DNA of 32,000 bases from Candidatus Saccharimonadota bacterium (GCF_008189285.1 NZ_CP043315.1:480001-512000), one strand, 5' to 3'; shown: positions 2,028-27,708, numbered from the stretch's first letter. Notes: generated by a model not told the origin, from the letters alone. Numbers and translations are program-made.

Positions 2028-3593
2028 ATGAATTTATTAAAAACACTATTATTATTTCCTATAATTATATTTTGTGGATTGGAAGAAAATGGATACCTTG
2101 AAACAAAAGATGTTTTAGAAGAAAATTCAAGTAGGCCATCCTATCTAGCACAAACAGATAAGGCTTTATTTGATAGAGCGATGCATGATTTTGAAATTTA
2201 TAGAAAACATTCAACAAAACAAATAAATAATTTTATTTCCTTTATTAAGCACTCAAAAATATTTCTACTTTATCTTCGAAAAACAAAATTACTTCCAGTT
2301 GATTTAGTTGATCATGTAATAATGCCTTTTATGATAGGTGAAAATAGTCAATTATTTGATTTAAAATATCCATCTGCATTAAAGCAATTATGCTCAATAA
2401 ATACACAATGTATTGCAAATATATTGACAGGAAAGTATGAAATTAATCGCAATGATTTCTTTGTAAAAAGATATTTTAGTACATATGTAGAAAAGATAAT
2501 TCATGAAATGGAAATGGAAACTACTTTAGATCTTACAAAATCACTTAATAAATGCAATAAAATGGTGGAGAATTTTCTAGATCCATATAAAAATATCAAG
2601 AAGCTTGATCTATCTGGGAATCAAATTTACATAATGTCTAAATTTGCATTCAGTAAATTAACAAAATTAAAAGAGCTTATTATTTCTGATAATTGCATTA
2701 TAAGCATTCCCAATGAATCATTTTATGGCATGCATAATTTAGAAAAATTGATCTTATCTAACAACAAACCAACTAAAAAGAAAATATTTTATGGAAATAA
2801 ATTACTTGGAAATAAAAGCAAAATAATTCAATTGCATTTGAAGTCATTTGTGAATTTGATAAATTTAAAAATACTACATCTAACAAATAATGCAATGCAT
2901 CTACTTCCAAACATTCCATTATTCGCTAATTTTTCTAATTTGCAAGAACTTAATTTATCTGGAAATAAATTTACATCAATTGGAGACCAGATTTTTAGTG
3001 ACAATTTAAATTCATTGGCAATTCTTGATTTGTCAAATAATGAATTAGATGAATTAGATGAGAATGCTTTTCTCAACTTGCATGGCCTTCAAAAACTTTC
3101 TCTTAAAAATAATAAACTAACTTTCATACATGAAAACACATTCAGAAAACTAACAAAATTAGAAACTTTAGAATTAAGTAACAATGCATTATACAATACA
3201 TTATGTGATAATTTATTTGCAAATTTAATCAACTTGCAAAGCTTAGATATTTCTTCATGCAACATATCAATCTTAAAAAATTGCCATTTCTTAAAAAAAT
3301 GCACTAAGCTACAATCTCTAAATTTAAATAATAATGGAATACCCTGCATTGACCAATATTATTTCTGCGATTTGCCAAACTTAGAAGTGTTAAAATTGAA
3401 TCATAATAGAATAATGGCATTTCCATATGAGGCGCTAAACAAATTGCAAAAATTGCAAAAAATAGATTTATCTTACAATAACAGATTTGCATTACGTAGA
3501 AAACTTACACTGTATAACCTAACTTCATTAAAGATACGTAACAATGATCTAGAAACATTCAATTGGGTAGAGATAGTAATGCTTCTAGTTTAA
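2028..3593 (+). CDS. Secreted LRR protein, family A (521 aa)
   Basis: Signal-peptide-like MNLLKTLLLFPIIIFCG. Family-A N-module motifs are present (HDFEIYRK, KIFLLYLRK, KYPSALKQL). At least 12 LxxLxLxxNxI repeats follow (KKLDLSGNQI, LKELIISDNCI, LQELNLSGNKF, LAILDLSNNEL, LQKLSLKNNKL, LETLELSNNAL, LQSLNLNNNGI, LEVLKLNHNRI). Confidence 0.85.
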   Translation: MNLLKTLLLFPIIIFCGLEENGYLETKDVLEENSSRPSYLAQTDKALFDRAMHDFEIYRKHSTKQINNFISFIKHSKIFLLYLRKTKLLPVDLVDHVIMPFMIGENSQLFDLKYPSALKQLCSINTQCIANILTGKYEINRNDFFVKRYFSTYVEKIIHEMEMETTLDLTKSLNKCNKMVENFLDPYKNIKKLDLSGNQIYIMSKFAFSKLTKLKELIISDNCIISIPNESFYGMHNLEKLILSNNKPTKKKIFYGNKLLGNKSKIIQLHLKSFVNLINLKILHLTNNAMHLLPNIPLFANFSNLQELNLSGNKFTSIGDQIFSDNLNSLAILDLSNNELDELDENAFLNLHGLQKLSLKNNKLTFIHENTFRKLTKLETLELSNNALYNTLCDNLFANLINLQSLDISSCNISILKNCHFLKKCTKLQSLNLNNNGIPCIDQYYFCDLPNLEVLKLNHNRIMAFPYEALNKLQKLQKIDLSYNNRFALRRKLTLYNLTSLKIRNNDLETFNWVEIVMLLV

Positions 3594-3726: not shown

Positions 3727-4455
3727 TTAACCACGCAACAAATCATTGATTGAAATTTTGGATTTAGTTTTTTCGTCAACTTTCTTAATTATAATTGCGC
3801 ATTCAAGCGATATATTTTTGCTTATGGAATATGATCCTGGAACAATAACGCTATATGAATCAATTTTATCCATTTGCAATCCATCTCTATTGAATATTTT
3901 TGTTGATGATGTGATTTTTGTTCCTGCCCCTAATACACATCCCTCTGGAATCATAATGCCTTCCGCAATAATGCATTGAGCTCCTATAAATACATTATCT
4001 TCTATAATTACAGGCATAGCGCTTGAGGGCTCCAAAACTCCAGCAATCACTGTATTAGAAGAAATATGACAACGCTTTCCTATATGCGCGCATGACCCAA
4101 TCGTTACCCCACTATCAATCATTGATTCATCATCAATATATGCCCCAACATTAATAAATGAATTACTCATTATCACGCAATTCTCTCCTATATATACCCC
4201 TCTTCTAATCCATGACCCTGGAACAAAACGAGAATTTTTATCTAATAAAGCTTGATTATTTATATTATTCTGCAAATCCACTTTGTCATTCCATTTTGTT
4301 AAATTATCTATTCCAGTAATTTGCTTCTCTGATTTAAAAATATTATTAATTTGCTTAAATGCATTTTTATTCAATTCCCATTGATTCTCTTTGTTCACTA
4401 TTTTAACTTTCCCAGACTCTAAATCTACTAGCAAAGATTCTACTTTTTCATTCAT
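3727..4455 (-). CDS. dapD: 2,3,4,5-tetrahydropyridine-2,6-dicarboxylate N-succinyltransferase (hexapeptide-repeat acyltransferase)
   Basis: RFVPGSWIRRGVYIGENCVIM..SFINVGAYIDDESMIDSGVTIGSCAHIGKRCHISSNTVIAGVLEP...PVIIEDNVFIGAQCIIAEG shows the left-handed beta-helix hexapeptide pattern and the DapD-like core. Confidence 0.8.
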   Translation of the reverse strand: MNEKVESLLVDLESGKVKIVNKENQWELNKNAFKQINNIFKSEKQITGIDNLTKWNDKVDLQNNINNQALLDKNSRFVPGSWIRRGVYIGENCVIMSNSFINVGAYIDDESMIDSGVTIGSCAHIGKRCHISSNTVIAGVLEPSSAMPVIIEDNVFIGAQCIIAEGIMIPEGCVLGAGTKITSSTKIFNRDGLQMDKIDSYSVIVPGSYSISKNISLECAIIIKKVDEKTKSKISINDLLRG

Positions 4456-4560
4456 AATTTAACCCTACAACGTGATATCATCAATATCAACACAATAAAT
4501 GAAATAAAAAAATATAAAATAGAGTTGCATTAAATTTTTTTTGCCATCTATACATATATA

Positions 4561-5028
4561 TTGTATAATGAATACATGACATTATTTAAATTAAGTAAAA
4601 TTAAGAATACAATTTATGCGACAGGAAGAGTTGCAATGCTTTCTTTGCCTATCTACTCATATTGCACAAATATAGATTGTTTATTGCAAAAAACACAACA
4701 ACAATGGGGGGAGAATGTATCATGTGAAGAATTTAAAACCATTATTAAAGATGAGTGCGAAAGAAAAAGCATGCTTAGATTGTCATGCAAAAAAGCAAGA
4801 AGTTTGTCACAATTGAATCAAGAGCCTTACTTAATTGACAAAATATCCTCTTATATATTTAATGAAAATGATCTTGTGATTGGGCTTTTAAAATATGAAT
4901 TATCAAATAATTATTTTTATTGTAATGCCTACCCTTTAAGCAGCGTAATAAAAAACTTTATAGAAAGATGTAATTCTCAAGATTTATTGAAAAATAAACA
5001 TAATAAATGCATTTCAAATATAAAATAA
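4561..5028 (+). CDS. Hypothetical protein. Truncated tandem paralog of the 5174 gene, without the LRR part.
   Basis: The first ~35 aa and the block SLSQLNQEPYLIDKISSYIF closely match the 5174..6364 product. The ORF-track start is a TTG embedded in TTGTATAATG. An in-frame ATG lies at 4576. Confidence 0.5.
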   Translation: MYNEYMTLFKLSKIKNTIYATGRVAMLSLPIYSYCTNIDCLLQKTQQQWGENVSCEEFKTIIKDECERKSMLRLSCKKARSLSQLNQEPYLIDKISSYIFNENDLVIGLLKYELSNNYFYCNAYPLSSVIKNFIERCNSQDLLKNKHNKCISNIK

Positions 5029-5173: not shown

Positions 5174-6364
5174 TTGTATAATGAATACATAACATTATTT
5201 AAATTAAATAAAATTAAGAATGCAATTCAAATAACAGGAAGAGTAATCATATTTGCTATTCCTATCTGTTCATATTGCACAGGATTTGCACTAGATAAAC
5301 TGCATTATCCTATGTATTTCTGCGATGTGGAAATAGAATCTTATGAGCAAAAAGAAATACTGCGGAGAGAAATAAGCAACGACATTAAATTGTATAAAAA
5401 GACAAATGAAAACGAGTTTGTAGAATTTATTTATACTAAGCATGAAAGAATAGCAACTAATGCATTTAAATTATTATGCAGAAAATCAAATAGTCTGTCA
5501 AAATTAAACAAAGAACCTTATTTAATTTATGAAATCTCCTCTTATATATTTGATAAAGAAAAATACTTTCAATTCTTATTAAAATATCAATCTGCTTGCA
5601 AAATTATGCATACAGATTTTCTATTCAGTTTGGATCCTTTTGAAAAAGGTGGATTATTTCAAAAAATGTATGCGGCAACTCATGTCAAAAAATATAGAGA
5701 AAATATGGAGAAAACATCAAAGTTGCGCATAGGTTATTGTGAGCATTTATGCCCATTTGTATCCTTTCTATATAAAAACCTAGAAATGCTAGAAATTGAT
5801 TACAATCAAGAAATTGACAAAAAAATACTTTATGAATTTAAATTATTAACAGAATTAAACATAAGAATATTGCATGATTACTGCATACCAAAAAATACTT
5901 TTAATCATTTAATCTCATTAGTGAAACTTAATTTATCTTTTTGCAAGCTCAAATCAATTCCTAATTTATTTAATCTAAAAAATCTAAAAGAACTAGATCT
6001 TTCAAACAATGATATATCAAGAATAAAAGAAAATGACCTTAAAGGATTGGAAAGCCTTGTGTCATTAAGTTTGAATTACAATAGTATTAAATGCATTGTT
6101 TCAAAAGAAGATCATGAATATTTTTCTTCAATTAAAGATGATGAAAATGCATCATATTGGGAAATTGAAAGTTTGTCATACTTGCCAAAACTTAGACAAA
6201 TCTATCTAACAACTTATACTAATTGCTTATATATATCAACAAATGCAAAAAACATCTTAGAAATCCAATTGCTAAATTTAGAAATTTACCCTAACTTTCA
6301 AGATGAAAATACAATGCCACATGCGCTGCTAAAAGAAGTAATTAAAAGCATAGCAATTCAATAA
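5174..6364 (+). CDS. LRR protein (396 aa) with a hydrophobic N-terminus
   Basis: LRRs are present: LVKLNLSFCKLKSIPNLFNLKNLKELDLSNNDISRIKENDLKGLESLVSLSLNYNSIKCI. A DIKLYKK motif is reminiscent of the family-A DIEIYR. Only a TTG start is available upstream of the conserved hydrophobic segment. Confidence 0.65.
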   Translation: MYNEYITLFKLNKIKNAIQITGRVIIFAIPICSYCTGFALDKLHYPMYFCDVEIESYEQKEILRREISNDIKLYKKTNENEFVEFIYTKHERIATNAFKLLCRKSNSLSKLNKEPYLIYEISSYIFDKEKYFQFLLKYQSACKIMHTDFLFSLDPFEKGGLFQKMYAATHVKKYRENMEKTSKLRIGYCEHLCPFVSFLYKNLEMLEIDYNQEIDKKILYEFKLLTELNIRILHDYCIPKNTFNHLISLVKLNLSFCKLKSIPNLFNLKNLKELDLSNNDISRIKENDLKGLESLVSLSLNYNSIKCIVSKEDHEYFSSIKDDENASYWEIESLSYLPKLRQIYLTTYTNCLYISTNAKNILEIQLLNLEIYPNFQDENTMPHALLKEVIKSIAIQ

Positions 6365-6453
6365 ATTAAGCGGTAGGATTTTGCCAAATATTATCTGGCT
6401 CAATCATGCAATCATATAAATCATAAATCAGGCAATTATACAACTAATCGAAA

Positions 6454-8440: not shown

Positions 8441-9379
8441 ATGATGTTATTTAATATAGTATTTCTATTATTTTCTTCAAATATATTTTGCATGCAAGAT
8501 AATATTAGTCGCGCAAGCAATGATGGAGTAGGCAGAGTGTTTTCTCAATATTTTGGAAAAGATTCATTGTCAAAAAAAATGAAAATGGATATAGAGTTTT
8601 ATCGAACACTCTCAAGTAAAGAATTTGCAACTCTCATTAATTCCAAGCCTTTTCTTATATTTTTATTTTGCAATAAGAAAAAAATGATGTTTTCAGATCA
8701 TGAAATAATTGAAATAATTACCTCTCATCTCATTGATGAAAAATCATATTATTCAATGAAAAATCAAAATATATCATTGGATAAATTCAATTATCCAGCA
8801 AGTTCATTAAAATATTATTTTGCGAATGGAATAAATGATGATTCATTGAAATATGAAGATAAATATTACTTTGAATGCTTGCATATATGTTCATATGCTT
8901 CATTACATGATGATAAATTGAAAAAATCGCTTGAATTAATAAACAAAGCATCGTATATGCCATCGAAAAATATAAATATAAATTTATCGCAGAATCTATT
9001 CATTCTTATTCCAAATGCAACAGTAATCTACTCAGCTTTCTCCGAGATGCAAAGAATTGAAGGAGGAATTTATCACAATAAACTGAAAAAACTTATTGTA
9101 ACAAAAAGTGAAATCACAAGAATATTGAAAGGAACGTTAAATCTTCCAAACCTTGAACATCTTTGCTTTGCTTGCAATCAAATTGATCATATTGATAGAG
9201 AAGCATTTGCAGGAATGCCAAAGTTGAAAGAACTAAATCTTGATGGGAATCAAATAACAAGATTTGGATCCAATCAATTGATAGGAATAAATATTGATGA
9301 ATGTAAAATAAAACTTAACAATAATCCTTTGAACTCAGAATCAGCTAATTATTACAATTATTTAAAAAGTAAAAAATAA
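8441..9379 (+). CDS. Secreted LRR protein, family A (312 aa)
   Basis: Signal-like MMLFNIVFLLFSSNIFC. Family-A motifs MDIEFYR, PFLIFLFCNKKK, SDHEIIEIITSHL and YPASSLKYYFA are present. C-terminal LRRs: LPNLEHLCFACNQIDHIDREAFAGMPKLKELNLDGNQITRFG. TATAATTTGCAAAG lies upstream (8348-8361). Confidence 0.8.
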   Translation: MMLFNIVFLLFSSNIFCMQDNISRASNDGVGRVFSQYFGKDSLSKKMKMDIEFYRTLSSKEFATLINSKPFLIFLFCNKKKMMFSDHEIIEIITSHLIDEKSYYSMKNQNISLDKFNYPASSLKYYFANGINDDSLKYEDKYYFECLHICSYASLHDDKLKKSLELINKASYMPSKNININLSQNLFILIPNATVIYSAFSEMQRIEGGIYHNKLKKLIVTKSEITRILKGTLNLPNLEHLCFACNQIDHIDREAFAGMPKLKELNLDGNQITRFGSNQLIGINIDECKIKLNNNPLNSESANYYNYLKSKK

Positions 9380-9456: not shown

Positions 9457-10722
9457 ATGAATAATATTATTGCAGCAATTCTTTTTGCATGCACATTTGG
9501 ATTGAAAGTTAATTGCGCTCAAGCAGGTGCTAGAAGTTTGACCTCAAGCCTAAGAGGAAAGATAGGATCTTTTTCAAGCTCATCAGGTTATAGCGCAGGT
9601 TATAGCAGTGTACCATATGTAGATCAGCGAGTAGAAAAGTTAAAGCATGATATTGAAATATATAGACAATTCAACGAAGAGGAAGTAAATACTTTTGTAA
9701 ATTTACCTCTATTGAAAACATTTCTGCTTTACAATAATAGAAGAAGGTCTGAAAATGAATTATCTGGAAATTCAATAACATTCTCAAAACATGAAATTAC
9801 AGATATTATAGCTCCATTTTTTGTAGATTATGATTTGATTGAAAAAGTGCTTGATAAATCATGTTCTTTTCATAAACTACATCATCCTGCAAATGCTTTG
9901 AAATGGTTCTTTGCGCAAAAAATAGAACATCTTGATTTTTATCCTCCTCATTATCATAAGTTCAGAGAGCATGATCATTCAATCAAATCATACTGTGCAT
10001 TGTATGGTGATGAAGTAAGGAGAAAAGAATTATTTGATGGGAGAAAAATAAGATTTGGCATAGTGGAAGGATCATTAAATCAAAGATTATTTTTAGTGAA
10101 AGGAGCATTAGAGCAAAGAGTATTTGCTTTATGTCCTAATGTCCAAGAAATTGATGGATCAACAAGAGCGCTTGTATCAGAAATTAAACCTCTAAATTTG
10201 TCTCAATTGAGAAAAATCTCTTTATGTAGCGAAAACATGCTCGCATCACTTAAAGCAAATACATTAAATCTCCCAAATCTAGAATCTATATACATTGGAT
10301 ATTCTGGAATTACAGAAATAGAAGAAGGAACGTTTGAAAAGTGCCCTAAATTAAAATCTATATCCTTTGCCAATAACAAAATAACAGAATTTGGATCAGC
10401 GCAATTAAAAGGAGTTAATTTAAATCAACTGGAAGAATTAGATCTATCTGAAAACCCTCTTGATCAATCTTCCAAAGATTATGTAAACAACATTAAAAAT
10501 CAAATTAAAAATAGAAATGACCTTAAAGCTGAAGAAGAAAAATGGAGAAAAGCAATAGAATTATCAGAAGAAGGTGAAATTGCATGCATTCATTATCAGT
10601 TCGACAAAACTTTCCCATACACAAAATTGTTCCCATCAAATCTAGCAACATATCAATTCACCCCAAACCAATTAAGCATTACAGAGCAACTAACAGATAC
10701 AACACTTGATGAAATAGATTGA
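9457..10722 (+). CDS. Secreted LRR protein, family A (421 aa)
   Basis: Signal-like MNNIIAAILFACTFGLKVNCAQA. Motifs KHDIEIYRQ, LLKTFLLYNNRRR, SKHEITDIIAPFFVD and HPANALKWFFAQ are present. LRRs: LPNLESIYIGYSGITEIEEGTFEKCPKLKSISFANNKITEFG...LEELDLSENPL. TGTATAATTTGCAAAG (9415-9430) lies 27-42 nt upstream of the start. Confidence 0.85.
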   Translation: MNNIIAAILFACTFGLKVNCAQAGARSLTSSLRGKIGSFSSSSGYSAGYSSVPYVDQRVEKLKHDIEIYRQFNEEEVNTFVNLPLLKTFLLYNNRRRSENELSGNSITFSKHEITDIIAPFFVDYDLIEKVLDKSCSFHKLHHPANALKWFFAQKIEHLDFYPPHYHKFREHDHSIKSYCALYGDEVRRKELFDGRKIRFGIVEGSLNQRLFLVKGALEQRVFALCPNVQEIDGSTRALVSEIKPLNLSQLRKISLCSENMLASLKANTLNLPNLESIYIGYSGITEIEEGTFEKCPKLKSISFANNKITEFGSAQLKGVNLNQLEELDLSENPLDQSSKDYVNNIKNQIKNRNDLKAEEEKWRKAIELSEEGEIACIHYQFDKTFPYTKLFPSNLATYQFTPNQLSITEQLTDTTLDEID

Positions 10723-12362: not shown

Positions 12363-13538
12363 TTATCTTTTTATGCAGCTTTGGTTGATTTTGTCTAATA
12401 TTTCATCGCCTCTTAAATCTATTTGTTGTCCTAATGGCACTTTTCTAATAATTTTCATTATATGCTGCAACTTAATTATATATTCTTTGGAAAGCGCATT
12501 TAATGAATTCTTTGACAAATCTAATGCCCTTAATTTTACCACATCTATCCCTTTCAGTTGTTCAAAGCCAAATTCTTTTATTTTGCAATCTTTCAAATAT
12601 ATCTCTTTTAAATTAGGGCATTTCTCAAATGCTCCCGCTTCTATTTCTTCAAGACTGCATGTTAAAAAAGATATACATACTAGATTTGGCAAATCTAATA
12701 TATTTGCTTTGAGAGATTTAAAACTTGCATGATGAAATTTCATTTCTCTCAATTTAAGTAAATTTAAAGGCTTTATATCTGTAACAAATGTTGTCTTGCA
12801 TGATTGAATTGTTAGAGCATTAGGGCAAAAAGCAAATACTCTTTGCTCTAATGCCCCAGAAATTGAACTTAATCTAATCACGCGCTTATTAAGCAATATT
12901 TTTCTCATTTCATCGTCATGCAATGCACAGTATGAACTAATTGCGTGATCATGATTTCTAAACTTATCGTACCTAGCAGGCTGAGAATATAAACCAGTCA
13001 AAAAATTGCCATTTTGTGAATAATCATTACGCCCTCTAATTTGTTGCGCAAAGAACCACTTAAGAGTATTTGCAGGATATTTTAGCTTACTCAATGAGCA
13101 TGAATTATCATGTACTTTTTCAATTATTTTGTCATCTACAAAAAATGGAGCTATAATATCTTCAATTTCGTGATTAGAAAATATTATATTTGAATTCTTA
13201 GACGATGATTTTTCATGCTTGATTTTTCTATTATTGCAAAGTATAAATGTTTTTAGCAAAGCAAGGCTAGCAAAAGAATTTACTTCTTCTTCGGTGCATT
13301 TTTGGTATAATTTTATGTCATGCTTTAACTCTGCAGTTAATTTATCATCTTTCAAACCAAACATTATTGAATCCAATAATTCCTTGCAAATAGGATCCAT
13401 TGAATCAAATCCCAAATTCTCATTATTTGCACAATTAACCTGCAATACAGATGCATATGTAGCAATAATCGCAAAACATCTAATCGCTTCTATTATATTA
13501 ACAATAAATTTCATGCACAAACATAACATATACTTCAA
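12363..13538 (-). CDS. Secreted LRR protein, family A. Close paralog of the 9457 gene.
   Basis: Shares KHDIKLYQK, LLKTFILCNNRK, SNHEIEDIIAPFFVD, YPANTLKWFFAQ, HDHAISSYCALHDDE, GALEQRVFAFCPN and LPNL...EIEAGAFEKCPNLKEIYL with the 9457 product. The likely true start is the ATG at 13514 (MKFIVNIIEAIRCFAIIATYASVLQVNCA), which gives a signal peptide like its paralog. Confidence 0.85.
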   Translation of the reverse strand: MKYMLCLCMKFIVNIIEAIRCFAIIATYASVLQVNCANNENLGFDSMDPICKELLDSIMFGLKDDKLTAELKHDIKLYQKCTEEEVNSFASLALLKTFILCNNRKIKHEKSSSKNSNIIFSNHEIEDIIAPFFVDDKIIEKVHDNSCSLSKLKYPANTLKWFFAQQIRGRNDYSQNGNFLTGLYSQPARYDKFRNHDHAISSYCALHDDEMRKILLNKRVIRLSSISGALEQRVFAFCPNALTIQSCKTTFVTDIKPLNLLKLREMKFHHASFKSLKANILDLPNLVCISFLTCSLEEIEAGAFEKCPNLKEIYLKDCKIKEFGFEQLKGIDVVKLRALDLSKNSLNALSKEYIIKLQHIMKIIRKVPLGQQIDLRGDEILDKINQSCIKR

Positions 13539-13733
13539 TTTAAGTTTAGAAAAATCTTACAAACTTAGCGATGCATTTTATTTTTCATGCAATTCAAGCA
13601 ATGCAATGCTGTCTTATTATTTTAACAATTTGCAATTTTTTATAAATTATTCTATAAATCAACTTAATGAAATTTGCATAATAAACTTAATTAGATTTGT
13701 ATGGTATTTTTGAATAATGAATAATATTTGCCA

Positions 13734-15251
13734 TCAACGAATTTTTCTCAATACATCAATAAATTTATCAACTTCATCATGCGTATTATAAAAAGCAAAT
13801 GACGCCCTTACAGTCCCTTCTATTCCAAATGATCTAATAGAAGGTTGAGCACAATGATGTCCTGTTCTGACTGCAATTCCTTCTTCATCTAGCTTCTTTC
13901 CAACTTCATTGTTATCAATTCCATTAACTATAAAAGATAAAACCCCGACTCTATTAACAGGATTTCCAATTATCTTTACATGATCCAAATTTTTCATTTG
14001 CTCATACGCATATTGCACTATATCATGCTCATGATTCTCCACATTATTCATATCTAATTTATTTAAATATCCAATAGCAGCGCGCAAACCTTCTATGTCA
14101 GCCAAATTTGCAGTCCCAGCTTCATATACATACGGAGATTCTGCGTATTTTACTTGCTCATATTTCACATCATGAATCATTCCTCCACCAACTTGATATG
14201 GAATGCTATTTTTCAATAAATCTTCTCTTCCAAAAACAACTCCGGTTCCAGTTGGCGCAAACATTTTATGTCCAGAAAATACAAAAAAATCACATCCTAA
14301 CTCTTGAACATCAATTTTAATATGCGGAATTGATTGCGCACCATCTAATATAGTAATTGCCCCATGCATTTTTGCTTGTTGAATCATACTTTCTACAGGA
14401 ACTAATGTTCCTAGCGAATTTGCAATATGTGCTAATGAAACAATCTTAGTTTTCTCACTAAGCATATTAGAATATACATCCATAACAATATCTCCATTAG
14501 AATCAATTGGTATAATCTTTAAATTTGCATTTTTTTCTTGAGCTAATTTACGCCATGGCAAAATATTTGAATGATGCTCTAATTGCGTAATTAAAATATC
14601 ATCTCCAGCATTAACTTTTTGCATTCCAATTGTATTAGCAAGCAAATTTAATCCTTCAGTAGCGCCTTTTACAAATATTATCTCTTTTTCAGACCCATTA
14701 ATAAAACTAGCAACTTCTCTGCGCGCTTTATCAAATAATTCTGATGCTTCTTGAGACAATGTGTGCACTCCTCTATGAACATTAGAATTATATTGTGAAT
14801 AATAATTTGATATAGCATCAATTACAACTTTAGGTTTTTGTGATGTAGCTCCATTATCAAGCCAAATAAGTGGCTTTCCATTAATCAATCTACTTAAAAT
14901 CGGAAAATCTTGCCTAATCTGATGCACATCGAATAAATCACGATTAATAATTTGAGAATTATCTCCAGTTATATAGTTGGCATTATTGTAATCAAAACTT
15001 GAAATATCATCCATTGTTTTGTGATTTTCAAATTCACTACACTCTTCATAAATACCACTTACTTCTCTATAATTTCCTAATTCATGCATATCAAAATTTC
15101 CAAATTCGTTCATATTGATTTTTCTTTCATTAGAATGCATTGTACTCAACCTATCAATATTGCGCTTATCTCTTTCACTGCAATAATTCTGACTTTCAAG
15201 CAAATTATTGGAATTATAATTATGCATATTATTTGTAATCTTTTTGCTCAT
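13734..15251 (-). CDS. SufS-type (group II) cysteine desulfurase with a ~105-aa low-complexity N-terminal extension. Candidate encapsulin cargo.
   Basis: The core starts at IRQDFPIL...IWLDNGATSQKP. PLP-Lys motif SGHKMFAPTGTGV and catalytic Cys motif RTGHHCAQP are present. The long form is supported by AGAGGA 6 nt upstream of the ATG at 15251 and by only 11 nt separating it from the upstream gene's stop. Confidence 0.9.
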   Translation of the reverse strand: MSKKITNNMHNYNSNNLLESQNYCSERDKRNIDRLSTMHSNERKINMNEFGNFDMHELGNYREVSGIYEECSEFENHKTMDDISSFDYNNANYITGDNSQIINRDLFDVHQIRQDFPILSRLINGKPLIWLDNGATSQKPKVVIDAISNYYSQYNSNVHRGVHTLSQEASELFDKARREVASFINGSEKEIIFVKGATEGLNLLANTIGMQKVNAGDDILITQLEHHSNILPWRKLAQEKNANLKIIPIDSNGDIVMDVYSNMLSEKTKIVSLAHIANSLGTLVPVESMIQQAKMHGAITILDGAQSIPHIKIDVQELGCDFFVFSGHKMFAPTGTGVVFGREDLLKNSIPYQVGGGMIHDVKYEQVKYAESPYVYEAGTANLADIEGLRAAIGYLNKLDMNNVENHEHDIVQYAYEQMKNLDHVKIIGNPVNRVGVLSFIVNGIDNNEVGKKLDEEGIAVRTGHHCAQPSIRSFGIEGTVRASFAFYNTHDEVDKFIDVLRKIR

Positions 15252-15262
15252 AATTTTCCTCT

Positions 15263-16609
15263 TTAATCGTGGTAATGGCCAATTTCTATATTACACAACA
15301 TAGCTAAAGCATCTGGAACTAAAACTGCTACATTATAGTATTTAGTAATCAAATAATTAATCACTGACATATCATCTGTATTCATTTCTCTTACGCTCAA
15401 ACTTGGAATTCCTCCATAAGAAATATCAGGTTTATTTAATCCAACCACTCCTTGTTTGTCCATTCCTAAACGAATAGCCATCATATTTGTAATTGCCAAG
15501 CCATCATGACGTTTTGTAATACCAATTTTATCACATGGAACCAATGGAACCCCTCTCCACGTAATTAGATTGCTTCCAAACATTCTTACAATTACAGGCG
15601 GAACCCCTCTTTTTGTACATTCTCTTGCAAATGCAGAAATAGCCCTTGGATGCGCTACTATAACAGATGGATCTTTCCATAACATGCCAAGTAATTCATC
15701 CATATCATCTGGAGTTGCAGGCCCAGTTCTAGTGGTAATTTTTCTATCGTGAGAAACCTGATTAATCAATCCATGACTTGCATTATTGAATATTTCCCAC
15801 TCTTCTCTTTCTAATATATTTTGAATTAAAATCTTCAACTGAGATTCAAATTGAGGGTGTGGGTTATTATACAATTCATGTATTCTGCTATGTATTCCAA
15901 GCACAGATTGAATCACATCTAGCTCAATTTCTTCGGGAGATTCATCATACTCTGTATAGCTTTTAGGCATCATTGGTTCATCAGAATAAGAAGAAATTAA
16001 TTTAGCTTTATGCTCTCCGGTATTATATTCATTTTCATAATTCATAATTGAAGATTTTACATAATATCTGAATTCATCTTTTTGAAGCAAATCTTTAAAT
16101 GAATCATTTTCAACAACCAGCATAGATCCTGGAACAGATGTTCTGATTTTAATTTTATCGTAATTTTCATATCCCAAAGCTTTAAACCCTCCAAAGAATT
16201 TTCCAGCTTGTAAATTAGCTATTACAACAGGCTTTTCATTATGATTTAACAGAACTAATTCATATTCACCGCTTAATATTATATAAAACTTATTCTCAGA
16301 TTGATTTTGCTCAATTACCTCTCCTAATATGCAACTTTTTTTAGATGAATTGCCAATAAGTGAAGAAATTTCCTTATTATTTAAATAACTCATCAATTCA
16401 ATTGATTTTACTGATTCTTCATTCAAAGCATGTGGATTGTTTTTATATTTTTTAACTCTATTGATTCTAAATATACCAGTTTCTAAATTTACACATGGAA
16501 GCATCTTCATAAATAATCTAGGAGTAATAAATTCTGCAAAAGCATGTGTATTTTGCACTGCAGATAATACTTTAGCATTTTTAAGGGAATTAATTCTTCT
16601 TTCTTTCAT
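15263..16609 (-). CDS. Candidate family-2B encapsulin shell protein (cNMP-binding-like domain insertion, no HTH)
   Basis: AGGAG lies 5 nt upstream of the ATG. Residues ~25-55 (FITPRLFMKMLPCVNLETGIFRINR) resemble the N-arm segment I recall from family-2 encapsulins. Residues ~65-185 look like a cNMP-binding beta-barrel (FYIILSGEYELVL, GKFFGGFKAL, IRTSV). The remaining ~260 aa show no recognisable DNA-binding motif. The gene is coupled to an extended SufS. The ORF itself is certain; the functional call is an inference. Confidence 0.65.
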   Translation of the reverse strand: MKERRINSLKNAKVLSAVQNTHAFAEFITPRLFMKMLPCVNLETGIFRINRVKKYKNNPHALNEESVKSIELMSYLNNKEISSLIGNSSKKSCILGEVIEQNQSENKFYIILSGEYELVLLNHNEKPVVIANLQAGKFFGGFKALGYENYDKIKIRTSVPGSMLVVENDSFKDLLQKDEFRYYVKSSIMNYENEYNTGEHKAKLISSYSDEPMMPKSYTEYDESPEEIELDVIQSVLGIHSRIHELYNNPHPQFESQLKILIQNILEREEWEIFNNASHGLINQVSHDRKITTRTGPATPDDMDELLGMLWKDPSVIVAHPRAISAFARECTKRGVPPVIVRMFGSNLITWRGVPLVPCDKIGITKRHDGLAITNMMAIRLGMDKQGVVGLNKPDISYGGIPSLSVREMNTDDMSVINYLITKYYNVAVLVPDALAMLCNIEIGHYHD

Positions 16610-16707
16610 TTTATCTCCTATTCAATGACCATAATATTATGAGGAAATTATTACTTAATGGTTAAAAAATGAGCCTAATTACAAGTTATTTGCTAAGCAT
16701 ATATATC

Positions 16708-17019
16708 TTATTGTTGATTATTGAAAAAATTATTATTCATTTCAAGAATGATTTCTCTATTTGATATTCTTCTATTTAATATTTCCACCATTTTTTCAAA
16801 AGAAATATCGTCATCCAACAAAGCAACTCCATTGCTGCATAAGCGAAGATTTCCATTTAATTTTGCAACAGACCATTCTCCATGAACATTTTCTTTATTA
16901 GCATTATTTTGCATCAATTGAGCATAAGGCAATTGAAGTGCATTATCTACAATTCCTGCATCAATGTTCATTGAAATAAAAGTGGATAAAATTATTGTAG
17001 TATTTAATATTCTATTCAT
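16708..17019 (-). CDS. Small hypothetical protein with a signal-peptide-like N-terminus (103 aa)
   Basis: ORF with hydrophobic MNRILNTTIILSTFISMNIDAG. It sits 98 bp upstream of the encapsulin-like gene on the same strand. There is no obvious SD and I recognise no homology. Confidence 0.45.
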   Translation of the reverse strand: MNRILNTTIILSTFISMNIDAGIVDNALQLPYAQLMQNNANKENVHGEWSVAKLNGNLRLCSNGVALLDDDISFEKMVEILNRRISNREIILEMNNNFFNNQQ

Positions 17020-17165
17020 ATTTTTATTATGACATGATATTATTTGATTGCAAGTATTCTTATAAATTCCAATATAATACTTAGTAAATAGATGAAATAT
17101 ATGACAAAAATATCACAACAAATCAAATCAGTTGCAAAATAATCTATTATGATCTATAAAATAAT

Positions 17166-17306
17166 CAGGCTCTTATAAGTGTTTTGTCTGCGAGGCACAA
17201 TAATACTCACGGGAGTCGTCACTGATTTGTTCTGTGGAACATTTTATACGACACCCACCTATACATATAGGCCCCGTGAAGGTGGAATATTTATATGAGT
17301 CGCAGT
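17166..17306. ncRNA. Unassigned candidate structured RNA or leader element
   Basis: A G+C-enriched island in an otherwise very AT-rich 350-bp spacer, with stops in all frames. Complementary segments are TCACGGG (17207-13) with CCCGTGA (17273-79), CCACCT (17255-60) with AGGTGG (17280-85), CTGCGA (17188-93) with TCGCAG (17300-05), and GTCGT (17216-20) with ACGAC (17248-52). The first two are interleaved, so they could form a pseudoknot. The strand is undetermined. Confidence 0.3.
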
Positions 17307-17370
17307 ATTTATTAATATTATTAACAACTTACATTTTAATTGCTTAATAGATAAAATTCATCGAGACAAT

Positions 17371-18192
17371 ATGATAAAAAAATTAGGGAAAGACATAACA
17401 TGGATACGAACTGGTGGAGAAGTTGACATATTTGAACCTAATTCAATTTATGAGCTAAAGAGTTTTTTGAAAAATAACAAAAAAGTGATCCCTGTAGGAT
17501 TTGGATCCAATATAATCATTCCTGATTCAGGATTAGATAAAACTATAATAAGATTAAACAATATGCAAAATGATATACAAATAAATAGCGATCATCTAAC
17601 AATTAATGCTGGAACTCCAAATATAATTGTATCTAGATTTTGCACAGAAAATAATTTATCAAACTTAGAGTTTTTACATACCATTCCAGGAACAATTGGA
17701 GGGGCTTTATATATGAATGCAGGTGCATATGGGTATTGCGTATCAGATTATTTATTATGGGCAGAATTAATCGATCTAGATGGAAATATCCACAGACTTA
17801 ATAGATGTGAAATTAAATATGAATATAGAAAGAGCAATATTCCCGATGGAATGATTTTTCTCAAAGGATGCTTTAAAGTTGAAAATTGCAATAATGTCAA
17901 AAATAAAATCAAACAAATGAAACAATATAGAAATGATAAACAGCCTAGAGTAAATACTTTTGGAAGCGTGTTCACTAATCATGCAAAATATAACGCATGG
18001 AAGTTAATTGAACAATCTGGATGCTATGGGATGAAAATTGGAGGGGCATATATATCAGAATTACACTGTAATTTTATAATCAATGATGGGTCCGCTACAA
18101 GCAAAAATATAAAAGATCTTATAAATCAAATACAGCAAAAAGTCTTTAATCATTCTGGAATTTTATTAGAAGAAGAAGTGATTTTTCTTTAA
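17371..18192 (+). CDS. murB: UDP-N-acetylenolpyruvoylglucosamine reductase
   Basis: FAD-binding N-domain (GGEVDIF..., VIPVGFGSNIIIPDSG), IPGTIGGALYMNAGAYG, FGSVFTN, and C-terminal GGAYISELHCNFIIN. Confidence 0.85.
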   Translation: MIKKLGKDITWIRTGGEVDIFEPNSIYELKSFLKNNKKVIPVGFGSNIIIPDSGLDKTIIRLNNMQNDIQINSDHLTINAGTPNIIVSRFCTENNLSNLEFLHTIPGTIGGALYMNAGAYGYCVSDYLLWAELIDLDGNIHRLNRCEIKYEYRKSNIPDGMIFLKGCFKVENCNNVKNKIKQMKQYRNDKQPRVNTFGSVFTNHAKYNAWKLIEQSGCYGMKIGGAYISELHCNFIINDGSATSKNIKDLINQIQQKVFNHSGILLEEEVIFL

Positions 18193-18288: not shown

Positions 18289-19188
18289 ATGCTATATATG
18301 TTATGCAATATATTCACACCAATACATGAAGCAATAATTCATATTTCTAGAATTGTTGAGCGTTCATTTGATTTTCATATGTTTAAATATTTGTATAAAA
18401 TGGGAATAAGTTCTATTAAACACAATATTTATACGGCAATATATATTGCAATTGTTATAGCATTTGCAATGATTTTATCGCATTGTACATATCAATTATA
18501 CAATCTGATATCATTAGGGAAAATAACAGGGAGATGGACTAAAGCATTTCTATATATAATGAATTTCAATGTTTATATAAGATTATTGACAACATTATTA
18601 GTAGCATTCATATATGAAAAAAATGAAGCAGATAAAATGGTTCATATAACAATGGGGCTAACATATTCATTTTCCATATTGAAAAGAGCTGCGCTATATA
18701 CAGCATTGATGTTTCATATAAGATTTACTCAAATAATGCATTATATGTTATCTCTTAATGTAGCATTTGCAATATTAAATCCAAAGAATCATATATTATT
18801 CTCATATTTTACATATTCTAAATATGAAACTTGGAATAATTCATTAATTAAATCATCATTGCATCTATCTAGCAATATATTTGAACTAATGTGGATCATA
18901 TCATATTGTATATTGGGATATATATGGTGGCACATATCAAATAAAAACAGCATGTCTAAAACTATATTTAACATACACATTATTCTTAATCTTGCATGGT
19001 ATCCAATATTTTGCATATTACAAAGACCTGGAATATCATTAATGCATATCACATTATTGATAACTTCTGCTTTATATATGATGATTAGCTTGAGAAAAGC
19101 AAAACATATATTGATTATTCTTATTCCATATATAGCGTTATTAATGACTGAAGCATATCTTAATTTATATATATTTTTGAATAATTAA
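18289..19188 (+). CDS. Membrane protein with a C-terminal TspO/MBR-like domain (residues ~150-299) and an extra N-terminal membrane region
   Basis: The C-terminal half aligns by eye with Rhodobacter TspO: ETWNNSL...FELMWIISYCILGYIWW versus EWYDNL...FPLAWTSLYFLM; LNLAWYPIFCILQRPGISL versus FNTLWTPVFFGMKRMATAL; IPYIALLMTEAYLNLYIF versus VPYLIWATAATGLNFEAM. The true start could be internal. Confidence 0.5.
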   Translation: MLYMLCNIFTPIHEAIIHISRIVERSFDFHMFKYLYKMGISSIKHNIYTAIYIAIVIAFAMILSHCTYQLYNLISLGKITGRWTKAFLYIMNFNVYIRLLTTLLVAFIYEKNEADKMVHITMGLTYSFSILKRAALYTALMFHIRFTQIMHYMLSLNVAFAILNPKNHILFSYFTYSKYETWNNSLIKSSLHLSSNIFELMWIISYCILGYIWWHISNKNSMSKTIFNIHIILNLAWYPIFCILQRPGISLMHITLLITSALYMMISLRKAKHILIILIPYIALLMTEAYLNLYIFLNN

Positions 19189-20212: not shown

Positions 20213-21400
20213 ATGAATAAAATAATTTTATCTCTTATTACTTGCAATATATTTGCAGTTGGAGAGATATCGCATAAACTTAGCGCTTCTGAATCATATT
20301 CACAGCACATAAAAGCAATTAAACATGATGAGGAAAATCTAAATGCATTTAAAGATGAAGGGTATTATCAATTAGCTTGCAGAAAAGATTCAAATAAAGC
20401 TCTTCTTGGATTCTGCGCTTATAAAATTCTTCAAAGAGAAAATAAAGGCTCTTTATATAGCCTACGTTACGATTCTTTGATAAGAGAGCCTCAGCATTTT
20501 TTCTTCTATCTAAAGTATATGTCTGAATATATTGATGAATTTAAAGAAATATTGATGAATTTGAAAGAAATATTACTACATGATGAATTCGCAACATATT
20601 TACCACACAATACATTCAACGGATTAAGCAATATAACGCATCTTATTATCAACGGAAATCCATTATTATCCACATTGCCAGCAAGTATATTCAGTAAATT
20701 AAGCAATATAACACACCTTAATATCAACAACACTCTGTTGTCCGCATTACCAAAAAACATATTCAATGGGCTGGTCAATTTAATAGAACTAAATCTATCT
20801 GTAAATAAAATAAAATCATTGCACTGTGATATATTCAAAGGTTTGGTTAATTTAGAAGAATTATATATAGCTAATAATGAATTCTTCACATTACCAGTAA
20901 ATATATTCAGAGATTTGCATAGCCTATCAGAATTATGCGTGTCTGGAATAAAATTGACCCACCTTCCTAATAATATATTTATTGGTCTAGATCAATTAAC
21001 AGATTTAATGTTGTGTGAAAGTTCATTATCCACATTGCCATCTAGTATATGCACATTAGAATCATTAAATTCATTGCATGCTAGAAGAAATAATCTTGAT
21101 AAATTACCAGGAGCAATAGGAAATCTAAAAAATTTAACAGAATTATGGCTTTATAAAAATCAATTAACAAAACTGCCAGATTCTATAGGAAATTTAACCA
21201 ATCTAATAGAGTTATCCTTGGGAGAAAATCCATTAATTCGACTTCCACATACAATAAGCAAATTAGATAATTTAGAAGAATTAGACCTTCCCATTGAAAT
21301 GCTTGAACCTCTTTCAAAGAAATTAATGAAGTATTTAATGAGCTTAGAATCCGTATCATTATATGGATCAAATCCAAGATTTGCACATTTTACACAATAA
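20213..21400 (+). CDS. Secreted LRR protein, family B (395 aa)
   Basis: Signal-like MNKIILSLITCNIFA. Family-B N-module (IKAIKHDEENLNAFKDEGYY...ALLGFCAYKILQ). About 12 LRRs of LxxLPxxIGNLxNLxxLxLxxNxL type (LDKLPGAIGNLKNLTELWLYKNQLTKLPDSIGNLTNLIELSLGENPLIRLP). Confidence 0.85.
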   Translation: MNKIILSLITCNIFAVGEISHKLSASESYSQHIKAIKHDEENLNAFKDEGYYQLACRKDSNKALLGFCAYKILQRENKGSLYSLRYDSLIREPQHFFFYLKYMSEYIDEFKEILMNLKEILLHDEFATYLPHNTFNGLSNITHLIINGNPLLSTLPASIFSKLSNITHLNINNTLLSALPKNIFNGLVNLIELNLSVNKIKSLHCDIFKGLVNLEELYIANNEFFTLPVNIFRDLHSLSELCVSGIKLTHLPNNIFIGLDQLTDLMLCESSLSTLPSSICTLESLNSLHARRNNLDKLPGAIGNLKNLTELWLYKNQLTKLPDSIGNLTNLIELSLGENPLIRLPHTISKLDNLEELDLPIEMLEPLSKKLMKYLMSLESVSLYGSNPRFAHFTQ

Positions 21401-21711: not shown

Positions 21712-22587
21712 ATGAATAAAATAATATTATCAACATTAATGGCTATAAGTGTATTTTCACTGGACTGCGCCCCTCCTACAAATATAGAAAGATATAATAA
21801 TTGCATAACAGCAATAAGAGGAAATGTAGAGCATCTATCTCAATTTCAAACTGTTGAAGGATATAATGCAGAATTAATATCAGGCAGCACTCAAAGCGCA
21901 CTTCTTGGATTCTGCGGATATCAAATCTTAAAAAGCGGCACAAATCAACCTAGCTATGACGATGTTTTAAAAAGCGTAAAAAGTGACAAACCACATAATA
22001 AATATAAAAACTCAATATGCATTGCAACATACTTTCATGCAGCGTATGTATCTAACATAGCCAAACCTATCGGAGCAATTTCAAGAATATTCGTCAATAT
22101 TAAGCAATTAAATTTGCAGGGCGCAGGATTAACATATTTGCCTGATGGAATATTCAGTGGATTAGACAAATTAACTGAATTAAATTTAAGTGGCAATTGT
22201 AGTGCAAAGCAAATTGAATTTCTTTCTCCTGCTGTTAATCAATTAGAATGTCTCCCTGATGGAATATTCAGTGGATTAGACAAATTAACTAATCTAGATT
22301 TAGGTGGCAATAAATTAACAAGCTTACCTTCTAGCACATACAAGCTAACCGCATTAAAAGAACTAAGTGTGCGTAAAAATAAACTAACTTCAATATCAGA
22401 TGGAATAAGCAGCTTAAAAAATCTAGAAGAATTATTTCTTGATTCCAATGAATTAACAGAAATTCCATATTCTATAGATGAATTGAAATGTTTGAAAGAT
22501 CTGTCTTTATTTCCCAATCAAATATCAGCAATTTCATTTAAAATGAATAGATTGCTGATAGAGAATAACCGAAATCTTGGAGAGTAA
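21712..22587 (+). CDS. Secreted LRR protein, family B (291 aa), possibly 3'-truncated
   Basis: Signal-like MNKIILSTLMAISVFSLDC. N-module ITAIRGNVEHLSQFQTVEGYN...ALLGFCGYQILK. LRRs include an internal near-identical duplication LPDGIFSGLDKLT(E/N)L (nt 22141 and 22255, 114 nt apart). Confidence 0.8.
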   Translation: MNKIILSTLMAISVFSLDCAPPTNIERYNNCITAIRGNVEHLSQFQTVEGYNAELISGSTQSALLGFCGYQILKSGTNQPSYDDVLKSVKSDKPHNKYKNSICIATYFHAAYVSNIAKPIGAISRIFVNIKQLNLQGAGLTYLPDGIFSGLDKLTELNLSGNCSAKQIEFLSPAVNQLECLPDGIFSGLDKLTNLDLGGNKLTSLPSSTYKLTALKELSVRKNKLTSISDGISSLKNLEELFLDSNELTEIPYSIDELKCLKDLSLFPNQISAISFKMNRLLIENNRNLGE

Positions 22588-27296: not shown

Positions 27297-27302
27297 TTTC
27301 TT

Positions 27303-27678
27303 GAAGCTGAGTTGTCGCTAGACTTTTGTCGATCATTTGATTGATAGATATTTAGAGGAAAGTCCGGGCTCCATGAAGAAAAAGTGCTGGTTAATGGCCA
27401 GCGGGTATATAATTGCTAATTACTAGCAGCAATATATCTAGGGAAAGTGTCACAGAAAATATACCGCCTAGGAATTAATTTTTAGGTAAGGTTGAAATGG
27501 TGCGGTAAGAGCGCACCGCTGTTTTGGCAATGAAACAGGCATGACAAACCCCACTTGGAGCAAATTCGAGCAAAGGGTTGCATCTTCACTAATGCCCTTG
27601 GGTTGAATGCTATAATTTTGCAGCAATGTAAAGTAGAGATAAATGACAACATAAAACAGAACCCGGCTTATTGGCTTC
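27303..27678 (+). ncRNA. rnpB: RNase P RNA, bacterial type A
   Basis: Universally conserved P4 strands GAGGAAAGTCCGGGCTCC (27355-72) and ACAGAACCCGGCTTA (27656-70). GGTAAGAGCGCACCG and GACAAACCCCACTTGGAGCAA blocks are present. The ends pair as P1 (GAAGC at 27303-07 with GCTTC at 27674-78). Confidence 0.92.
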
Positions 27679-27708
27679 AATTAATAATTCAATCAATAAA
27701 AATTGTAA

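Follow-up and report, generated by a model that had tools for sequence, protein, structure and literature searches.

Does an obligate endosymbiont with a genome of 0.63 Mb encode a protein compartment for sulfur? This question is raised by a stretch of 32,000 nucleotides (NZ_CP043315.1:480001-512000, referred to below as the window) in which a 448-amino-acid (aa) open reading frame (ORF) is followed directly by a cysteine desulfurase gene. A preliminary description of the window had proposed that the two genes form an operon encoding an encapsulin shell of family 2B together with its desulfurase cargo. At NCBI, a protein of Candidatus Cytomitobacter indipagum (628,024-bp genome), a Holosporaceae endosymbiont hosted by a marine diplonemid protist, is 100% identical to the 448-aa product. 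The genomes of the diplonemid endosymbionts hold 505-550 genes and are without glycolysis, the tricarboxylic acid (TCA) cycle and respiration (10.1101/719211). From sequence comparison and structure prediction we consider it likely that the pair is a functional family 2B desulfurase-encapsulin operon of this organism. This reading is directly supported by family membership (sequence and predicted fold), intact catalytic residues, conservation of the operon and purifying selection. The parts of the locus, including the insertion that resembles a cyclic nucleotide monophosphate (cNMP)-binding domain and the pyridoxal phosphate (PLP) enzyme, are as follows.

15263..16609, minus strand: predicted gene for the family 2B encapsulin shell (448 aa), with its stop codon at 15263-15265; matched by NF041163, by PF19307 plus PF00027 and, in Foldseek, by 9bhu

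16445..16609, minus strand: shell N-arm, aa 1-55, with the motif TPR..F..MLP.V....G..R.NR

16022..16444, minus strand: predicted cNMP-binding-fold insertion of the shell, aa 56-196 (PF00027), derived in having FGG for FGE, no phosphate-binding Arg and a shortened N-terminal (metal-binding subdomain) segment

15266..16021, minus strand: linker of low model confidence (aa 197-225) and predicted HK97-fold shell-forming core (aa 226-448; PF19307)

16615..16618, minus strand: ribosome-binding site GGAG of the shell gene, 5 nt before its ATG, read directly from the sequence

15252..15262, minus strand: intercistronic spacer of 11 nt with an AGAGGA Shine-Dalgarno sequence at 15257-15262, read directly from the sequence

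14940..15251, minus strand: N-terminal extension of the desulfurase, aa 1-104, predicted to be disordered and presumed to be the cargo-loading domain

13734..14939, minus strand: catalytic domain of the predicted SufS-type (class V, type II) PLP cysteine desulfurase, aa 105-505, stop codon at 13734-13736 (TIGR01979, PF00266)

The upstream ORF, which contains FITPRLFMKMLPCVNLETGIFRINR, is matched from end to end by NF041163, the NCBIfam profile for the family 2B encapsulin shell (E 5e-113, 378.5 bits, profile positions 5-450 of 450). Pfam assigned the SrpI-like family PF19307 to aa 194-444 (E 1.2e-88) and the cNMP_binding family PF00027 to aa 98-178 (E 2.8e-9), while family profile searches found no helix-turn-helix or other DNA-binding domain in the 448 aa; the cNMP-like barrel without a helix-turn-helix had been seen correctly in the preliminary description. 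The solved 2B shells 9bje, 9bix and 9bhu match the protein by sequence over its full length, and the solved 2A shells 8t6r and 6x8m (SrpI) match its C-terminal 240 residues (E 6e-73 to 2e-59 over all of these shells). Against 9bje the alignment covers aa 13-444 and has an 11-residue gap after the N-arm. The family 2 N-arm, which had been pointed out in the preliminary description, is borne out by an alignment of 63 2B shells, where T29, P30, R31, P38, G45, R48, N50 and R51 are invariant or near-invariant. At the position where the family has Trp, the window shell has Cys and its Cytomitobacter relatives have Tyr.

The predicted fold leads to the same family. An AlphaFold model built on an alignment of 63 homologues had a mean predicted local distance difference test (pLDDT) score of 73, with values of 85-93 over most of aa 260-400. 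When this model was compared with solved structures by Foldseek, 9bhu was the top match (E 1e-33), followed by 8t6r, 8wol, 6x8m, 9bje and 9bix, all with a probability of 1.00; cyclic nucleotide-binding (CNB) domains of PKG and PKA came further down (E ~1e-8). Neither a fold other than HK97 nor another protein family was thus favored for the core. Sequence and predicted fold together support the identification of the 448-aa protein as a family 2B encapsulin shell composed of an N-arm, a cNMP-fold insertion and an HK97-fold core.

The downstream ORF is, by its sequence, a SufS-type cysteine desulfurase with intact catalytic residues. It scores 524 bits against TIGR01979 (SufS), above the curated cut-off of 475, and matches PF00266 (Aminotran_5; E 1.8e-137) as well as solved SufS structures (best E 3e-131). 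The PLP-binding Lys K329 (in SGHK) and the catalytic Cys C467 (in GHHCAQP) are invariant, and the catalytic domain was modeled with pLDDT mostly >90. The enzyme is therefore complete, as had been proposed. SufS profiles and solved SufS structures align to it only from residue ~104-111, which shows that the extra N-terminus of ~105 aa noticed earlier is real.

The two genes are closely linked. Between the TAA of the shell gene (15265-15263) and the ATG at 15251, where the 505-aa desulfurase ORF (13734..15251, minus strand) begins, stand only the 11 nt agaggaaaatt, just as had been read in the preliminary description. A spacer this short, with AGAGGA in it, implies that shell and desulfurase share a transcript and are coupled in translation. 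A promoter and terminator scan of positions 13300-17500 gave counts no higher than those of shuffled sequence and is uninformative in such AT-rich DNA.

The arrangement is conserved in relatives of C. indipagum. Shell and desulfurase genes adjoin in C. primus, in Nesciobacter abundans and in two further chromosomes of ~620 kb labeled ‘Rickettsiales bacterium’, where the flanks are largely rearranged; in relatives the two genes overlap by 8 nt or stand 8 nt apart. A sixth lineage, seen in Logan contigs (L016 and L017, from SRR12358675 and SRR12358676), also has the pair, its shell being 84% identical to that of the window. Both ORFs are intact in five complete genomes; in both of the partial Logan contigs the shell ORF is intact and the cargo ORF ends with the contig. 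Should SRR12358675 and SRR12358676 be RNA-seq runs, these contigs would be evidence that murB, shell and cargo are expressed. In a collection of genomes from 185,579 species, close relatives of the shell were confined to the endosymbiont clade, and identity fell from 55% to 34% outside it. The three nearest outgroups (38-40% shell identity), one of which is a Ca. Berkiella metagenome-assembled genome (MAG), encode a 2B shell and a desulfurase with an 8-nt overlap, and in two of the three the pair adjoins a rhodanese gene or rhodanese, TusA and DsrE genes. The pairing was therefore kept in every relative and outgroup examined, in agreement with the operon originally proposed.

Purifying selection acts on both genes. 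With synonymous sites at saturation (dS > 1), the values of omega are rough; within this limit, omega was 0.03-0.075 in the HK97 core, where the proportion of non-synonymous differences (pN) was 0.06-0.18 and aa identity across the clade was 70-90%. The N-arm gave an omega of 0.04-0.27, and the catalytic domain of the desulfurase gave an omega of 0.08-0.20 with a pN of 0.13-0.30. The low non-synonymous divergence in these three regions indicates that selection keeps both genes. In the cNMP-fold domain, the rate of evolution is 3-6 times that of the HK97 core.

What does this faster domain do? All six endosymbiont shells lack the Glu of the cNMP pocket motif FGE, which 56 of the 57 other 2B shells keep; five have Gly at this position (G141 in the window shell, giving FGG) and one, that of Nesciobacter, has Lys. 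The position of the phosphate-binding Arg of the R(S/T)A motif is occupied by D151/K152 in the window shell, so that both elements of the canonical phosphate-binding cassette are missing from it. Pfam fails to recognize the domain at all in the Nesciobacter shell. The shell of Streptomyces griseus, the sole 2B shell tested, does not bind cAMP (PMC11550324). Given the missing Glu and Arg and the behavior of the S. griseus shell, a cNMP-sensing role for the external domain is unlikely. The segment after the N-arm is also derived, being 19-20 aa long in the endosymbiont shells against a median of 30 in the 57 other 2B shells; model confidence is low here (aa 53-62). It is the counterpart, shorter by ~10 aa, of the Ca-binding subdomain of the S. 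griseus shell, a segment of ~30 aa that opens the cNMP-fold domain and has been reported as highly conserved in 2B shells.

Comparison with known systems places the window pair closest to catalogued operons of 2B shell and desulfurase, such as that of the Ca. Berkiella MAG (L007). These have the same two-gene core, in which the desulfurase directly follows the shell, the same order of shell domains and a short cargo extension (50-120 aa). The window system differs from the nearest of them in a shell that is only 38-40% identical and in its host, an obligate endosymbiont with a 0.63-Mb genome. It further differs from other such systems in the change from FGE to FGG and in the segment after the N-arm, ~10 aa shorter, and from the outgroups in that rhodanese, TusA and DsrE genes are not neighbors and that the outgroup cargo motif is undetectable.

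Among characterized shells, the best structural match is Sg Enc of S. griseus (EshA; 9bhu), the first 2B shell to be solved (TM-scores of 0.63 and 0.71). Both proteins have an HK97 core and an external cNMP-fold domain, and both lack the phosphate-binding Arg. In contrast, the cargo of Sg Enc is a 2-methylisoborneol synthase, sequence identity is 28%, and Sg Enc has a 30-aa Ca-binding subdomain, the segment corresponding to which is truncated in the window shell. The 2A shell SrpI of Synechococcus elongatus PCC 7942 (6x8m) has a homologous core (E 1.3e-68; 44% identity over 231 Foldseek columns) and, like the window system, a SufS-type partner (CyD), which is loaded via a disordered N-terminal domain. 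On the other hand, SrpI has no cNMP-fold insertion, and it belongs to a free-living phototroph that induces it when starved of sulfur; the N-terminal domain of its cargo, ~225 aa long, carries the motifs LARLANEFFS and AASPYYFLDG, which were not detected in the window cargo. The 2A desulfurase encapsulin of Acinetobacter baumannii 118362 (8t6r) also shares the core (E 2.3e-70) and the class of cargo enzyme, and it is the only desulfurase encapsulin with an experimentally shown function, as an elemental-sulfur store. Its shell is of the 2A type, 24 nm in size, with closed two-fold pores; its four-gene operon includes a rhodanese and a serine O-acetyltransferase, neither of which is in the window; and its loading domain is rich in Pro, Gly and Ser, whereas the extension in the window is rich in Asn, Ser, Asp and Glu and has no proline.

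Three published systems suggest how the pair could work. The SrpI desulfurase is loaded through its N-terminal domain (PMC8049743), the A. baumannii encapsulin stores crystalline elemental sulfur (S0) derived from L-cysteine and excludes reductants (PMC10836720), and the S. griseus shell is a T=1 particle of 29.4 nm with external cNMP-fold domains (PMC11550324). From these characterized 2A and 2B relatives we infer assembly, T number, encapsulation and sulfur storage. By this analogy 60 copies of the shell protein would probably form an icosahedral T=1 particle of some 24-29 nm, with the HK97 core as its wall and the cNMP-fold insertion, which would be no cyclic-nucleotide sensor, on the outside. 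Subunits would assemble around desulfurase dimers, SufS being tethered to the lumen by its disordered extension. Host-derived L-cysteine would enter via the shell pores and be converted by the enclosed SufS to alanine and persulfide or elemental sulfur, which would accumulate, shielded from cytosolic reductants, as a protected pool to be released on demand to acceptors. Such a store could buffer the sulfur supply or limit cysteine or sulfide toxicity in an endosymbiont that has to import cysteine. We regard the chances of this storage mechanism, as distinct from the identity of the operon, as about even.

A two-gene compartment would then have been kept while glycolysis, the TCA cycle and respiration were lost, and its retention under purifying selection speaks for an important part in how the symbionts handle cysteine or sulfur from the host. 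A stronger proposal, that the shell-associated SufS is the main or only desulfurase and that all sulfur for iron-sulfur (Fe-S) clusters and tRNA thiolation is routed via and buffered in the encapsulin, appears unlikely to us; if it is true, a minimal cell depends on a protein organelle, one whose loading signal and external domain have diverged from those of every characterized system.

Several results weigh against an encapsulin operon, and a number of them concern the extension of the cargo. This region (aa 1-104) has no family match, is rich in Asn (17%), Ser, Asp and Glu with 0% Pro, and is predicted to be disordered over aa 11-104 (pLDDT 28-41). An extension is present in every orthologue and outgroup, with a length of 50-159 aa, and evolves near-neutrally (omega 0.3-0.76; 20-30% identity among orthologues). 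In the closest relative (SRR12358676) only ~50 residues precede the catalytic domain, and they hold no motif. LARLANEFF-like strings have been published for encapsulin-type desulfurases (PMC8049743) and are borne by many of those compared here. When the window extension was scanned for the published loading motifs (LARLANEFFS and AASPYYFLDG), it scored no better than shuffled sequence with an ungapped position-specific scoring matrix (PSSM; P = 0.30) or with gapped hidden Markov models (HMMs; P = 0.22-0.39). By the same scans we rejected KINMNEFGNF (aa 44-53) and the cargo N-terminus as copies of LARLANEFFS.

The 2B cargos with short extensions have a common N-terminal amphipathic motif of their own (IYSLVEQLSF, INKILNEFNF, INQMIEKFDF). 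A profile of this motif made from the outgroups only gave P = 0.10 on the window extension, which is not distinguishable from chance. In C. primus and the relatives L005 and L006, where a motif of the INKILNEFNF type is visible by eye, the outgroup-derived profile picked the right position weakly (P = 0.07-0.22), and a profile from long-type cargos did not significantly recognize the short 2B-type N-termini. Neither C. indipagum nor its closest relative nor Nesciobacter thus has a detectable loading motif. This result is weakened, not removed, by the fact that the loading domains of those 2A and 2B cargos that have been characterized show poor conservation too and make short, discontiguous and partly non-specific contacts (PMC10836720, PMC11550324). 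Encapsulation here would rest on the coupling of the genes, the ever-present disordered extension and precedent.

Other unfavorable points come from curated thresholds, gene content and the literature. The NF041163 score of the shell lies 5% under the equivalog cut-off of 400 bits, which explains its generic NCBI name, ‘cyclic nucleotide-binding domain-containing protein’; the C. primus orthologue, 81% identical, is already named a family 2B shell by NCBI, and the window gene should be called the same. Against NF041166, the 2A cargo model, the desulfurase scored 624.7 bits where the cut-off is 800 and aligned only to the catalytic part (profile positions 207-623) of a model built on long 2A-type extensions. 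As had been remarked, no rhodanese, cysE, sulfate-uptake or sufBCDE genes lie in the 32-kb window; no sulfur acceptor (rhodanese, TusA, DsrE) or CysE is encoded near the pair there, unlike in the outgroups L008 and L009. Thin-section transmission electron microscopy of >850 symbiont cells revealed no capsid-like particles in a study that was directed at gene transfer agents (GTAs) and whose authors described resolution as limiting (PMC9254644). Finally, our search of the literature turned up no 2B desulfurase system that had been studied experimentally.

The preliminary description had called this combination the less studied one, and to this extent it was right; the architecture itself is already catalogued. 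A census counted 199 operons of 2B shell and desulfurase in nine phyla, compared with 1281 for 2A (Andreas & Giessen 2021, PMC8346489), and the former make up about 9% of 2B systems. What sets the window pair apart is its unusual host, a reduced endosymbiont, and its lineage-specific degeneration. The supplements of the census do not mention these organisms, and a search of the literature yielded no account of encapsulins from any reduced obligate endosymbiont. A GTA study of these symbionts speculated that GTA capsids might act like encapsulins, which it brought in only as an analogy; it apparently missed that a true encapsulin is encoded in the same symbionts. The clade, in which the operon is minimal and devoid of accessory genes, the loading domain very short and variable and the external domain degenerate, is a small natural test set and could reveal which features are truly needed for loading and function.

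Is the desulfurase encapsulated at all? One could argue that SufS is a free housekeeping enzyme for Fe-S clusters and tRNA thiolation, not or only weakly encapsulated, that its extension is drifting and that the shell is empty or has some other role. The undetectable motif in three members of the clade and the near-neutral extension of 50-159 aa are what one would expect from this, and the catalytic domain is ~50% identical alike to ordinary SufS proteins of 406-420 aa and to the long encapsulin-type enzymes. Fe-S cluster synthesis is also named among the most complete pathways remaining in the diplonemid endosymbionts (10.1101/719211), so a desulfurase would be needed anyway. Nevertheless, adjacency and coupling to the shell gene are kept in five rearranged genomes and in all outgroups, no cargo lacks the extension although reduced genomes are biased toward deletion, poor conservation is shared by loading domains that have been characterized, and the shell core is strongly constrained, as its omega indicates. 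We therefore consider a free enzyme unlikely.

It is very unlikely that the pair no longer functions and is a decaying relic that is being removed by genome reduction. This could be suspected from a cNMP-fold domain that evolves fast enough to escape Pfam in Nesciobacter, from the hypervariable cargo extension and from scores under curated cut-offs. However, intact ORFs of both genes in five complete genomes and an intact shell ORF in the Logan contigs speak against decay, as do a pN far under the synonymous proportion (pS) in the HK97 core and the catalytic domain and the retention of all catalytic residues. Pseudogenes are, moreover, very few in these genomes (10.1101/719211).

The idea that the 448-aa protein is a Crp/Fnr-type regulator responsive to cyclic nucleotides draws on its PF00027 match, its NCBI name and a weak CRP match (E 1e-4; 21.6 bits against a cut-off of 266), but it is refuted by the fold and family evidence and its probability is negligible: helix-turn-helix and pocket Glu and Arg are all missing, the C-terminal 250 aa are an HK97-fold shell domain, and the homologous EshA ‘regulator’ has itself been re-assigned as a shell protein (PMC11550324). 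An equally negligible chance attaches to the shell gene being a remnant of a prophage or GTA capsid cluster that lies beside sufS by coincidence, as one might propose from its HK97 fold, a distant Foldseek match to a phage capsid (8ho3; E 5e-7) and the GTA capsid genes reported in these symbiont genomes, since its matches to encapsulin shells are more than 20 orders of magnitude better than those to capsids, genes for a portal, a protease or a terminase do not adjoin it, the cNMP-fold insertion and the N-arm are specific to family 2B and the desulfurase pairing is conserved far beyond the clade.

The surroundings of the encapsulin pair are those of a small AT-rich genome, as had been described (25-35% GC in the window). 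All of the sequence strings cited in the preliminary description occur in the window. Apart from seven leucine-rich repeat (LRR) proteins, a TspO-domain protein and RNase P RNA, the rest of the window is housekeeping in nature (tpiA, dapF, dapD, murJ, ahpC, accD, murB, ddl, ftsK, rplI and dnaB). Immediately upstream of the shell gene, the preliminary description had pointed to a small ORF at 16708-17019 (minus strand). It exists (103 aa, with a hydrophobic N-terminus) and lies between the shell gene and a conserved RNA-like element. We rejected it as a part of the system: no family profile matches it, the orthologous loci lack a homologue, and the closest relative lacks the segment that holds it. 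Either the ORF is a gene specific to this species or it is no gene. A hexapeptide acyltransferase at 3727-4455 was considered as a CysE partner and likewise rejected, as it is DapD (E 4.5e-74, above cut-off). Its Nesciobacter homologue sits directly upstream of the shell gene.

The RNA-like element is a non-coding block of ~155 nt at ~17125-17290, probably on the plus strand, that keeps 75-79% identity across all five related genomes even though synonymous divergence has reached saturation. Its copies lie at 3182-3332 in L016, 5240-5393 in L002, 7432-7581 in L005, 9691-9844 in L006 and 4456-4594 in L004. It usually abuts murB, and in some genomes it is apart from both murB and the shell gene. 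When folded with RNAalifold in the orientation of murB (plus strand), it gave 23 pairs, five of which have compensatory changes, and 96% of cells were paired. The covariation score was exceeded by one of 500 shuffles, and slid controls scored far lower; the folding energy of the single sequence was not exceptional. Two copies matched the Rfam 6S/SsrS model on that strand but fell short of its gathering cut-off of 46.4, one scoring 14.8 bits (E 0.44) and the other 18.8 bits (E 0.04); the C. primus copy gave no 6S/SsrS match.

The element is probably an independent small RNA outside the encapsulin operon, possibly a divergent 6S RNA. We rejected it as a leader of the shell operon: it is 4.6-5.5 kb away in C. 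primus and Nesciobacter, is on the opposite strand in Nesciobacter, and is usually found beside murB. In L005, which has a full murB at 3978-4811 (minus strand), a separate 86-aa MurB_C fragment lies near the element at 6113-6373 (minus strand) and looks like a relic of duplication or rearrangement at the locus.

The seven LRR-domain ORFs, at 2028-3593, 5174-6364, 8441-9379, 9457-10722, 12363-13538, 20213-21400 and 21712-22587, are interspersed among the housekeeping genes, and the LRR-rich context reported earlier is thus confirmed. In Nesciobacter, murB, ddl, murJ, ahpC, dapD, shell and cargo are contiguous, which suggests that insertions of LRR genes and rearrangements broke up an ancestral block. 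Two further features lie on the plus strand. At 18289-19188 there is a 299-aa protein in which a hydrophobic N-terminal extension of ~165 aa precedes a TspO/MBR domain (aa 169-296; E 2e-18) at the C-terminus, an unusual retention for a 0.63-Mb genome, and at 27299-27686 there is a bacterial class A RNase P RNA that matches its model over the full length (251.9 bits, E 3.5e-81).

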